Under the pieces are notes generated by a model, which was not told the DNA's origin, made no database searches, and was given only the letters and a program-made list of their open reading frames with translations. Shown piece after piece: positions 34,548-36,914 of a stretch of 64,000 bases of DNA. Source of the DNA: Escherichia coli (lineage in GTDB: Bacteria > Pseudomonadota > Gammaproteobacteria > Enterobacterales > Enterobacteriaceae); the NCBI RefSeq assembly GCF_003334765.1, contig NZ_QOWT01000002.1. One strand, given 5' to 3'. Position 1 is the stretch's first letter. Each line of letters begins with the position of its first letter. The translations under genes were made by a program, and so were the position numbers.

Positions 34548-36914
34548 TTAAATAAACATAAGAATAAACATCAGAAGTTCCTCGTATCTGATACCATACT
34601 GATAGCCAGCAGGTTTAATAATAACCTGCCTTCCTGTGTAATATTCCTCGTCGTACCACTCTCCTGTTTCATTGTTTTTAACACTCCTAATCAATACCTC
34701 TGGAGCATAAATATCATCCCATTCATCATAACACCAGAACGCATAGTTATTAGGGTCAAGACCGTATTTTCTGAGAATATTACCTACAGTTTGTGCACCA
34801 ACACCGAAATGAATCCGAGCGCCATCACTCTTGATTTTTACTGCATCTTTAAATTTAAACCTCCAGATATTTTCCTTTATTTCAAGCGCAGCAAGACGCT
34901 CTGATTCTGTTGTTTTCTCGTCAGCCTCAATACGCAATTTCAGCTCTTCATTCGACGTATTGATACTGCCAGTACCAGCGTATACCTGTGACCATCGAAA
35001 TGCTGATGTTCCGTTTGAGTTAACATTATCAACAGTTGGTTTTATAAGGCCAGAAAAATGAGTTTCAGGTGATGTATGAAGAAGATATCCGCCAGAATCG
35101 TTTTTTGTGCGTAATTCTATAGAGTCTACAATTATTCCACTGCGACGAATAATGATAGCGTTATTACCTTGTGCACCATTGTCTTTCTGAGTGGATAGTG
35201 TGTATCCGGTACGAGTATCTATCCTCCATCTTTTGGTATCTTCTGATGCTTCCTGATTATAAAGATAAATAGAGTTATCAGTGTAATTATTTTTGCCATC
35301 AATATTTGTAAGTGTAAATGTGTTATTTACTTTGTCATCATTGACCATGAAATTGGCAAGAGTGTAGAGAGGAGATGCAGTATACTGGCTGCAATTAAAA
35401 CCACGTGCGTTTTGTATGTTAAGTAATGTTGTGACATTAGCATTAATGCTAATATTGGAAAAGTTTGTCGCCTGATTTGCTCCATGTATTGATGATGTTA
35501 CTCCTATCTGAGCTCCAATATCCAATGTACCAAAACTTACATTAATGAAGTTGTTTGCATCGCCACCATCTATAATTATTCCTTTTTTAGTCGTCGTATA
35601 ACCTGATGCACTGCTAATCTCCAATCCATTAATGGTGCACACTCTTGGTCTGATGAGTCTAATTCCTACCCATTCATTTCCGTGGTCATATCCTCCTCCT
35701 GCTCTATGTATGGCTAGTCCATTAGCAATCAAAAGAAATCTGTTATCAAGATTAATAGGGTGAAGCTGGCTATTAATGATAACGTTTGTCCATATAGACT
35801 CACCATACGCATAGCGATTTGATTCGAACACTCTATCCTGAGCATCATAAACACCGTTTAGGGATCTAGCAACATCGACATTGGTAAGATTGAAATATGT
35901 CTTCTGCTTAATTTCAAAAAAATTGGCAACGTTATGCGTTGTGATATCACTCACACGCATGGATAAAATACCTTCTTCTGGAGCGGTGCGAATGAATCCA
36001 TCAAGGAACTGTTCATTATAACTTTTGGCTATCTGATAACATCCAACAGCATCAATGCGTTCGATTGTGAACTGCCAACTATCACCACAGTTAAAAGACC
36101 ATTCCCAACCGTATTTCTGTGCGAATTCATCAGAATCAATATTTGCAGTCTCAGAACAGAAAGATAAAAATCTAAATGTTGGTTTTGGCCTTAGATGATT
36201 AAGCCCGACACCTCTTGGGGTATATATGGCATTAGCGCCATTCCCGCCTTTGCTTTTAATTGTAAGGTGACTTAAACCAAATTCAACATCATGCTTAGTT
36301 GGTGCAGCGAAAACAAATCCATCTTTTGGTGATGTGGTATTATCAAACACAATAACCGTTTTACCCTGTCCATCTCCACACATATTCACTGGTGGTATAT
36401 TAACTGGTCCAATTAAATTATATATTCCAGTTGGGATATATAGCTTCCCACCATCTCCAAGAGCATTTGCTGCTGCAATAAATGCCACCGTATCATCGTT
36501 AACACCGTCACCTTTCGCCCCATAATGCTGTGGCGTAATTAACAGCATACGGTCAGAAAAAATCTCTGTCCTAAGTTGATCAGGATCGTATTTTAATACA
36601 TTTGGAAAATAAAACTGCTGAGTGCCATATGCATCATATACAGCCATAGAATGGCCTTGCACAGTTACGAATTTGGCAATCTGTCCGTTATATACAGGAT
36701 AACCAGCAGCGTTAATGATGATTGGTTGAGAAACAGGAACGTGAGAGCCGTCTTCGTTCTCTACATAAACCGGAATCTGGTTTTCAGTATTTACCGGGTC
36801 AGTGTCAATTTTACCGATATAAATTTTGCCATTGGCTACGGCTTTAAAGGAACGCGCCATAGTGAAGAGTTGCGAAGGCATCGATACGATCACATTGGCT
36901 GTAATGTCTGTCAT
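34548..36914 (-). CDS. tailspike: P22-type head-binding N-domain, divergent receptor domain, C-terminal S74-like autochaperone
   Basis: N-terminus [15 protein letters not shown]...[22 protein letters not shown]-terminus SNEELKLRI...FKFKD...HFGVGAQTV...IRYEELL. Confidence 0.8.

Follow-up and report, generated by a model that had tools for sequence, protein, structure and literature searches.

A prophage tailspike–acetyltransferase cassette in Escherichia coli associated with a rare group-2 capsule locus

The window analysed here, a 64,000-nucleotide stretch of Escherichia coli DNA (assembly GCF_003334765.1, contig NZ_QOWT01000002.1), contains a prophage remnant in which a tailspike gene and an O-acetyltransferase gene form a linked cassette. 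By analogy to the endosialidase and NeuO of the K1 prophage CUS-3, we consider it likely that the two genes encode a capsule-specific depolymerase tailspike and a capsule-modifying acetyltransferase. As the cassette occurs only in genomes that carry one rare group-2 capsule locus, this capsule is probably what the tailspike depolymerises. Judged by its sequence, it belongs to a P22-like (Lederbergvirus) temperate phage, with a predicted role in receptor binding, and consists of three putatively exchangeable modules in an ordinary arrangement: a virion anchor, a beta-helix with stalk, and a folding cap. The gene and its predicted parts are located as follows.

34548–36914, minus strand: tailspike open reading frame (from the ORF list), intact, 788 residues plus stop, N-terminus MTDITANV
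36576–36914, minus strand: head-binding domain, residues 1–113, predicted anchor to the P22-type tail hub (Pfam PF09008)
35355–36539, minus strand: right-handed parallel beta-helix, residues ~126–520, predicted polysaccharide-binding and cleaving domain
34956–35354, minus strand: stalk, residues 521–653, leading from the beta-helix to the cleavage site (monomer model and alignments)
34551–34955, minus strand: C-terminal intramolecular chaperone (S74 type), residues 654–788, predicted to be released after trimer folding
34938–34955, minus strand: predicted catalytic dyad, motif SNEELK, with Ser654 at 34953–34955 and Lys659 at 34938–34940

The 788-residue product matches PHROG tail spike families with E-values of 6e-116 and 5e-107, and copies in four complete E. 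coli genomes, identical to it at 98.4–98.8% of nucleotides, bear the RefSeq label 'phage tailspike protein'. As in P22-like phages, the gene follows the immI region (arc/mnt, ant) and lies near int and the conversion genes, and the gene order around it is common to the window, CUS-3, genome AVS0578 and phage_14408_1. A first-pass annotation, made from the sequence alone, had read the protein as a P22-type N-domain joined to a central domain of another kind and to a self-cleaving chaperone of the S74 type, a reading that now has statistical support from profile and structure matches. The N-terminal ~110 residues, assigned to the P22 type, are matched over residues 1–113 by the Pfam Head_binding profile PF09008 (E 2.4e-65); in phmmer searches of the PDB, residues 1–120 align with the N-domains of Sf6 gp14 and P22 gp9 (E 3e-63 to 5e-45), and HK620 gp9 is 91% identical over the same stretch. 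The central domain had also been called AT-rich, which agrees with a GC content of 38.3% for central domain and chaperone together, compared to 41.2% for the head-binding domain and 47.4% for the whole window.

In the predicted monomer structure of the window tailspike the central domain adopts a right-handed parallel beta-helix, and the stalk appears as beta strands of lower confidence followed by disorder; residues ~621–653 align with the region N-terminal to the chaperone in 7y5s, 4uw8 and 3gw6 and give a weak match to Pfam End_tail_spike. The fold matches of the central domain include many tailspike and capsule depolymerases, and since identity to solved structures never exceeds 16% these matches establish the fold only. 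Acidic residues are nearly invariant at D278, D288, D305, E334, D347, D357, D360 and E372. The central domain is predicted to bind a polysaccharide and most likely to cleave it. It had been described as unfamiliar, which is borne out by the structural comparison and by the phage records, just one of which among 50,697 holds a relative (PSK1, 56% identity), and not by E. coli itself, where 188 homologues cluster at 99% identity and about 20 more clusters exist, a cluster at 81% identity comprising 300 sequences. In three genomes (Br_112_kylling, AR_0085 and EC17CM13), which do not carry the rare kps locus, we found a partial relative of the domain with 93–96% identity over about one third of the query, not joined to a head-binding domain; these genomes count against a capsule-specific tailspike.

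The assignment of the last ~135 residues to an endosialidase/T5-type chaperone proved correct for residues 654–788. PDB phmmer searches with residues ~620–785 recover the chaperone-bearing chains 7y5s (E 3.5e-20), T5 pb1 4uw8 (2e-14) and endoNF 3gw6 (1.8e-10), the latter two of which are also matched by Foldseek. The Pfam Peptidase_S74 profile PF13884 gives a weak match over residues 654–718 (E 0.0025, 18.5 bits), and a precomputed PF13884 match is present in many homologues. The cleavage-site-like motif S-NEELK had been placed near 34955, precisely where the serine codon lies. In the alignments SNEELK corresponds to T(A)NGERK of 3gw6, T(A)DARLK of 4uw8 and TSDARLK of 7y5s; 3gw6 and 4uw8 have alanine at the position of Ser654, and the lysine five residues further on aligns as well. 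The dyad is kept in those homologues that have the chaperone domain, and the alignments suggest that the chaperone would cleave itself at Ser654/Lys659.

The second gene of the cassette lies at the 3' side of the tailspike gene, in convergent orientation.

33857–34528, plus strand: O-acetyltransferase, left-handed beta-helix (hexapeptide, LbH), convergent with the tailspike; predicted gene for receptor modification and lysogenic conversion
34525–34544, no strand assigned: hairpin separating the stop codons of the convergent genes, a possible bidirectional terminator (terminator scan)

Its product matches CatB/Vat/NeuD-type NCBIfam models, all below their curated cut-offs, and is labelled 'CatB-related O-acetyltransferase' in RefSeq. 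A hexapeptide-repeat O-acetyltransferase adjoining the tailspike near int is the arrangement of a CUS-3-type cassette. Exactly 10 of 5,426 complete E. coli genomes contain the acetyltransferase gene, and this set is identical to that of the tailspike carriers; it represents about nine distinct strains. According to coordinates or annotation, the two genes are direct neighbours in at least 7 of these 10, and in all 10 a copy of the acetyltransferase falls under the same matched place. The integration sites differ (torT in AVS0578, argW in GF4 and the window, bioA-ybhB in AH21A060), as do the flanking phage genes. Tailspikes that are 98–99% identical sit in complete P22-like prophages in AVS0578 and AH21A060, a variant allele is carried by a separately assembled 41-kb phage, and, besides the window remnant, strain GF4 has an independently head-deleted argW prophage with the cassette intact. 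In sequenced phages the acetyltransferase has only distant Vat-like matches, in phages of Gram-positive hosts.

With a kps region-2 fragment from AVS0578 as query, the corresponding capsule locus was detected in 22 of the 5,426 complete genomes, and all 10 cassette genomes fall among these 22, a correlation for which the hypergeometric P is ~1e-25, or ~4e-8 if three independent events are counted, a crude control for kinship. Strains AVS0193 and 2822 (ST131) are examples with the locus and without the cassette. The association is built on the 10 complete genomes, the kps locus of the window's own genome being located outside the window. Region 2 encodes a protein of 1169 residues that matches Hib Bcs3 over residues 424–787 (E 3e-28). 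The N-terminal 400 residues of this polymerase have no PDB match at E-values up to 10, which leaves a KrkA-type Kdo transferase at this position unsupported; for the same reason, Kdo content is deduced from the grouping in PMC13171606. The AVS0578 locus equals kTYPr type K107 in ORF lengths (1169 and 329 residues) and domain positions (PMC13171606), and the lengths of the capsule clusters, 14,254 versus 14,255 bp, likewise agree. The K107 reference cluster is NZ_JAYMNE010000021.1:75644–89898 of assembly GCF_035831355. The accessions of the carrier genomes do not occur in the kTYPr supplements, so that the K type was assigned from ORF lengths and domains, and on this basis the rare locus is probably K107. 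K107 is a capsule type defined in 2026 and reported with invasive disease (PMC13171606), and it is predicted to contain ribofuranose. The earlier suggestion that the receptor specificity is probably new is thereby narrowed to a rare group-2 capsule, probably K107, and is plausible in this form.

Around the cassette, the remnant of a P22-like prophage at argW retains the following elements.

32271–32345, plus strand: tRNA-Arg(CCT), argW, prophage attachment site (ARAGORN; arrangement as in GF4)
32471–33664, plus strand: integrase (IntS/CUS-3 type), with NCBIfam integrase domain, near-identical to the CUS-3 integrase translation
36978–36997, minus strand: strong intrinsic terminator separating ant from the start of the tailspike (terminator scan)
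37015–37893, minus strand: antirepressor (ant), immI region, upstream of the tailspike (synteny with CUS-3 and AVS0578 annotations)
39230–41071, minus strand: gp16, ejection protein (PHROGs, BLASTP to GF4 proteins)
41280–42197, minus strand: gp20, ejection protein, 305 residues, short compared to the homologue used (BLASTP to GF4)
42208–43590, minus strand: fusion ORF of gp7 (ejection protein, 42208–42903) and primase codons 1–229 (42904–43590)

At the deletion junction, the reading frame of primase residues 1–229 carries on directly to Met1 of gp7. ORFs for lysis, terminase, portal, coat, gp4, gp10 and gp26, which intact relatives have at this place, are all missing between gp7 and the primase gene, and the prophage is indeed headless, as had been stated. 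In the intact relatives the stretch that is deleted in the window holds the Q-type antiterminator, the lysis and head genes and the tail-hub genes gp4, gp10 and gp26. The terminator ahead of the tailspike has an 8-bp stem, of which 5 pairs are GC, with TTTTTAT behind it, and a promoter scan around the tailspike returned 12 promoter-like sites against 13.3 in shuffled sequence, which is no enrichment. An ORF at 41068–41337 was considered as a frameshifted C-terminus of gp20 and ruled out, as it has no similarity to it. The window tailspike is probably a relic that was stranded recently and is no longer expressed, and the acetyltransferase in the remnant could still be active.

Other readings of the cassette were weighed against a capsule depolymerase paired with a capsule-modifying enzyme. 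The tailspike might be a classical O-antigen endoglycosidase like those of P22, Sf6 and HK620, with the acetyltransferase modifying the O-unit in the cytoplasm and thereby bringing about serotype conversion. We regard this as improbable, as near-identical tailspikes are found in an O25 strain (AVS0578) and in AH21A060, GF43, LSC52 and A10, four cassette genomes without the O25 wzx (the one marker tested), which rules out the O25 antigen as a common factor, and as one rare kps type is common to all carriers; some of the carriers may have an O-antigen other than O25 in common. To a similarly small degree we allow for a central domain that binds its polysaccharide without cutting it, or acts on it by another chemistry (lyase or epimerase-like), in which case 'depolymerase' would be the wrong word; the many depolymerases of the same architecture among the fold matches and the number of nearly invariant acidic residues argue against it.

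A tailspike domesticated in the headless prophage and acting alone, for instance as a depolymerase that is released or as a component of a tailocin-like particle, had been raised in the first-pass annotation. In its favour, the ORF is intact in the remnant, GF4 likewise keeps the cassette after a separate loss of its head genes, and the ratio of synonymous to non-synonymous differences to the copy in an intact prophage is 17:10. We nevertheless judge it very unlikely. With the region of the late promoter lost and a strong terminator ahead of the tailspike, there is no support for the term 'repurposed'. The whole stretch from primase to gp7 is gone, the promoter-like sites around the gene do not exceed the number in shuffled sequence, the tailspike has no secretion signal and the prophage no lysis module, and the short gp20 points to decay. 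A divergence of 1.2% from the intact-phage copies agrees with a recent stranding, the near-identical proteins have their place in complete P22-like prophages, and a position at the prophage end, linked to int and the acetyltransferase, explains retention more simply.

For the capsule depolymerase and its partner enzyme we propose the following mechanism. Residues 1–113 would attach the trimer to the tail hub, and the pectate-lyase-fold beta-helix together with the stalk (~126–653) would bind and most likely cut a surface polysaccharide. Residues 654–788 are predicted to nucleate trimer folding and then to remove themselves through cleavage at the Ser/Lys dyad, which would leave a mature spike of about 653 residues. 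The target is most likely not an O-antigen and probably the rare ABC-transporter-dependent (group 2) capsule, presumably K107, with a Bcs3-like ribofuranosyltransferase-phosphatase polymerase encoded in its region 2. In lysogens the cytoplasmic acetyltransferase may acetylate this capsule and so alter both receptor and antigen. In the remnant at argW, which no longer has the late regulatory genes or those for lysis, head and tail hub, the tailspike would be stranded. A more far-reaching version, to which we give an even chance, holds that this is a mobile two-gene cassette dedicated to K107, that its phages would be the first non-K1 P22-like phages both to degrade and to O-acetylate a group-2 capsule, that an acetylated capsule variant is thus determined outside kps, and that a benefit to the host explains survival of the cassette in head-deleted prophages.

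The architecture of the protein is routine and already known, and it is the specificity that could be important. If the spike degrades K107-type capsule, it would serve directly as a reagent to type that capsule or strip it. With the acetyltransferase there would be a tangible candidate for a capsule modification encoded off the kps locus. Such off-locus determinants are a limit that the capsule-typing study itself names: by their own account, capsule typers cannot yet find them for other serotype pairs such as K18/K22 (PMC13171606).

Among known systems, P22 gp9, Sf6 gp14 and HK620 gp9, which target O-antigens (PMC11990801), match the window tailspike in the head-binding domain (E 1e-45 to 1e-63, 74–91% identity) and in the overall beta-helix spike fold. 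By sequence only the head-binding domain is alike: the beta-helices are 11–14% identical, and the C-terminal matches of the window protein are other proteins. The K5 lyase KflA (2x3h) and the mannuronan C-5 epimerase AlgE4 (2pyg) are 13–16% identical and act on other substrates, and no catalytic motif can be transferred from them to the window tailspike. The C-terminal domain of ~135 residues is homologous to the chaperones of endoNF (phage K1F, 3gw6) and T5 pb1 (4uw8), with which it has in common the Ser–Lys spacing of five and blocks such as HFGVxAQ and YGIRYEEL, and the closest chaperone-bearing chain is 7y5s, an otherwise undescribed 'phage tail fiber'. The tail spike of Escherichia phage PSK1 (PP541512), for which we found no paper, is the only one from a sequenced phage in which the central domain and the chaperone are both related (54% identity over residues 131–783); it differs in its length of 900 residues and its N-terminal adaptor, and the gene order of the phage resembles that of T7-type phages.

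The closest parallel is CUS-3 (CP000711), which agrees with the window prophage in phage type and in its argW attachment site. Its gene order is int, neuO, endosialidase, ant, mnt, compared to int, LbH acetyltransferase, tailspike, ant, arc/mnt in the window. The head-binding domains are almost identical, with 2 differences in the first 115 residues, and the C-terminal chaperones are homologous, including a TS-x4-K motif in CUS-3. The chimeric architecture of the window tailspike, named at the outset, is thus not unusual, and PF09008 and PF13884 are annotated in many E. coli tailspike clusters, with hundreds of prophage tailspikes sharing both ends. The central domains are unrelated, a sialidase in CUS-3 and a pectate-lyase-type beta-helix in the window, so that only the ends of the two proteins align. 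The acetyltransferase is not a NeuO orthologue: its similarity to NeuO is of the generic hexapeptide kind (34% over 79 residues), it has the opposite orientation, and its 5' end shows no tandem (phase-variation) repeat such as the AAGACTC tract of neuO. The associated capsule locus is of a ribofuranose-polymerase type, in contrast to the polysialic acid of CUS-3. According to its annotation and PMC3046976, CUS-3 targets a group-2 capsule that is modified by the adjoining acetyltransferase, and the cassette described here would extend this model, in which one temperate phage brings a capsule depolymerase together with a capsule modifier, from K1 to a second capsule chemistry.

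The window's tailspike gene is intact and adjoins an acetyltransferase gene, the two together being referred to here as the cassette, within a prophage that has lost most of its late genes. The features on which the analysis turns are the following:

33857-34528, plus strand: hexapeptide O-acetyltransferase gene, between the integrase and the tailspike
34548-36914, minus strand: tailspike ORF, 788 aa
42208-43590, minus strand: primase-gp7 fusion ORF, 460 aa, junction at about 42901-42906

The first-pass annotation had read the tailspike as a chimera with a P22-type N-terminus, and Pfam indeed places a P22 Head_binding domain at residues 1-113 (E 2.4e-65), while a PDB sequence search matches the N-domains of Sf6 gp14 and P22 gp9 to residues 1-120. 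A pectate-lyase-like stretch follows at residues 130-204 (Pfam). The proposed S74-like chaperone is recognized only weakly by the Pfam Peptidase_S74 family (residues 654-718, E 0.0025); chaperone-bearing chains in the PDB match residues ~620-785 strongly (7y5s, E 3.5e-20; T5 pb1 4uw8, 2e-14; endoNF chaperone 3gw6, 1.8e-10). The suspected cleavage motif SNEELK, whose Ser654 codon lies at 34953-34955, just where the first-pass annotation had put it, aligns with T-A-NGERK (3gw6), T-A-DARLK (4uw8) and TSDARLK (7y5s). The aligned serine position is alanine in both engineered crystal constructs (3gw6 and 4uw8), and the lysine stands five residues further on; we take this Ser/Lys pair, which is kept in those homologues that have the C-terminal domain, to be the catalytic dyad of the S74 family. 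An AlphaFold model built from 27 homologues (mean pLDDT 79) shows a confident right-handed beta-helix at ~130-510 (block-mean pLDDT 81-98, mostly above 90), followed by a less confident stalk and a helical/beta C-terminal domain. The AT-richness remarked on for the central domain is borne out, the central and C-terminal parts having 38.3% GC versus 47.4% for the window. At the extreme 3' end of the gene, a 12-nt tandem duplication (AATAAACATAAG x 2.2, 34551-34576) encodes a repeated C-terminal LMFI-LMFI.

The prophage is inserted at tRNA-Arg(CCT) (argW, 32271-32345), is flanked by yfdC and dsdC, and reads integrase, O-acetyltransferase, tailspike, ant, arc/mnt, two small ORFs, gp16, a short gp20 and the fusion ORF, beyond which lie replication, immunity and recombination genes. 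In the fusion ORF, primase codon 229 is joined in frame to Met1 (ATG) of the ejection protein gp7, and its first 229 residues, with 97% identity to the intact protein of E. coli GF4, are those of a toprim primase. The fusion was created by the deletion that lost the late genes. From the in-frame junction together with the gene order it follows that one deletion took the helicase part of the primase, the nin region and the genes for the late antiterminator, lysis, terminase, portal, scaffold, coat, gp4, gp10, gp26 and gp14. The prophage is thus headless, as first supposed, and has lost its tail hub genes too. The remaining gp20 (41280-42197, minus strand) has 305 aa versus 431 aa in its GF4 homologue (46% identical across the first 289 aa), and an overlapping 89-aa ORF after it (41068-41337) shows no similarity, which suggests that the C-terminus of gp20 has been lost or replaced. 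The gap between gp16 and gp20 is 41072-41279. The two small ORFs between mnt and gp16 (38465-38800 and 38816-39205, both plus strand) run opposite to the late genes and may be prophage-expressed accessory genes; the first (111 aa) starts with a hydrophobic, signal-peptide-like stretch, MRFLSLFLLAVVSSSSA, and for the second (129 aa) no NCBIfam family was found.

The first-pass annotation suggested that a tailspike kept in such a remnant could have been repurposed, and the cassette is also retained in the head-deleted prophage of GF4 at argW. The GF4 head-gene loss is an independent event, because its deletion differs from the window's: there (L004, the GF4 record, 24984-25581) part of a gp26-like tail protein lies directly against part of a DNA methyltransferase. 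Retention would be explicable by position, as central deletions would in any case spare genes at the integrase end of the prophage, where the cassette is. The same tailspike gene occurs in complete P22-like prophages of AVS0578 and AH21A060, and nothing in this analysis positively indicated that the protein functions on its own, so that repurposing is not upheld. There are 28 nucleotide differences between the window and AVS0578 genes, with 17 codon changes that are synonymous and 10 that are non-synonymous. In P22-type phages the spike is transcribed from the late operon via antitermination; because of this, and of a strong terminator between ant and the tailspike (36978-36997), we infer that the window copy is poorly expressed or silent.

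Strain NRZ14408 has a mosaic allele, located in a 41.3-kb phage that was assembled separately (phage_14408_1; L008, NZ_LT599830.1). This separate linear record is a complete P22-like phage that includes the cassette as well as tRNA-Thr and tRNA-Asn, and it may represent phage that had excised or was replicating in the culture sequenced. Its tailspike (L008 22473-24839) and the window's represent two alleles that both occur in hosts with one and the same capsule type. Residues 121-320 and 641-788 do not differ between them, but identity is only 42-78% at 321-640 (window 34995-35954). This pattern, in combination with an acetyltransferase protein 100% identical between both alleles, suggests that recombination has occurred within the gene, in the stalk and the distal beta-helix. 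Partial relatives of the central and chaperone region at 93-96% identity occur in Br_112_kylling, AR_0085 and EC17CM13 and in the NRZ14408 chromosome (1474949-1476960, 'glycosyl hydrolase family 28-related protein'). Since these family 28-related relatives are without the P22 head-binding domain, the module has been moved to another phage type. The matched region of Br_112_kylling also spans an IS4 family transposase, and that copy may be interrupted.

The tailspike gene is present at 98.4-98.8% nucleotide identity in 4 of 5,426 complete E. coli genomes and as the mosaic allele in 6 more; the acetyltransferase occurs in exactly these 10, and in at least seven of them coordinates or annotation directly show the two genes to be adjacent. 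AVS0578 served as reference for the O-antigen and kps loci: its O-antigen cluster contains an O25-family wzx, and its group-2 kps region 2 (L007, the AVS0578 record, 19849-24466) comprises two genes only, encoding 1169 and 329 aa. In searches combining the cassette with one marker fragment, O25 wzx, a single O-type marker, was not found in AH21A060, GF43, LSC52 and A10, and the kps region-2 fragment raised the number of matches by one in every cassette genome. Searched alone, it is found in exactly 22 of the 5,426 genomes, including all 10 (hypergeometric P ~1e-25; ~4e-8 counting three independent events only). Independence of the events is supported by three integration sites (next to torT, at argW and at bioA-ybhB) and differing phage backbones. 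Br_112_kylling, AR_0085 and EC17CM13, with their partial relative of the central domain, are without this kps type. The association is correlative and comes from few genomes (10).

In the 1169-aa protein, a match to Haemophilus influenzae Bcs3 (E 3e-28) covers the latter's ribofuranosyltransferase/phosphatase part, and the first 400 residues have no detectable relative in the PDB; the 329-aa protein gives weak alpha/beta-hydrolase and TPR signals and is a possible intrinsic O-acetyltransferase or esterase. According to the kTYPr study, one set of Kdo/ribofuranose capsules is made by single ORFs longer than 1,100 aa (PMC13171606), and the study's supplement lists K107_10 (1169 aa, HAD domain at 450-661), K107_9 (329 aa, alpha/beta hydrolase domain and TPR) and a K107 cluster of 14,255 bp, versus 14,254 bp in AVS0578. 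Because ORF lengths, domains and cluster length agree, the capsule of the cassette genomes is probably K107, an assignment by equal lengths and domains and not by alignment. K107 is a newly defined type with a reported association with invasive disease (PMC13171606).

These observations give the tailspike a specific, testable hypothesis for its receptor, the capsule. By homology, the chaperone would drive trimer folding and then be cut off at Ser654, and the head-binding domain would mount the spike on the virion; fold, family and host association suggest that the beta-helix binds and cleaves capsule, letting the phage reach the outer membrane. In lysogens, the cytoplasmic acetyltransferase would O-acetylate the capsule during its cytoplasmic assembly, altering receptor and antigen, by analogy with NeuO of the K1 phage CUS-3. 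In the window the phage is dead and the spike is probably a stranded copy; the acetyltransferase may still be active.

While the chimeric architecture stands, its plan is not new. In the protein database, 188 E. coli sequences fall in the 99%-identical tailspike cluster, and the 81% cluster has 300; E. coli clusters with PF09008, many also with PF13884, dominate the matches listed (120 of 3,264), among which the central-plus-chaperone module also stands behind the N-terminal adaptors PF18668, PF12571 and PF03906. Among 50,697 records of sequenced phages, a related central domain was found in PSK1 only (54-56%). Given the cluster counts, the adaptor variants and the likeness to CUS-3, the plan is known and frequent. 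Over the first 115 residues, the head-binding domain of the CUS-3 tailspike shows 2 differences; its chaperone is of the same kind, whereas its central domain is an endosialidase unrelated to that of the window tailspike.
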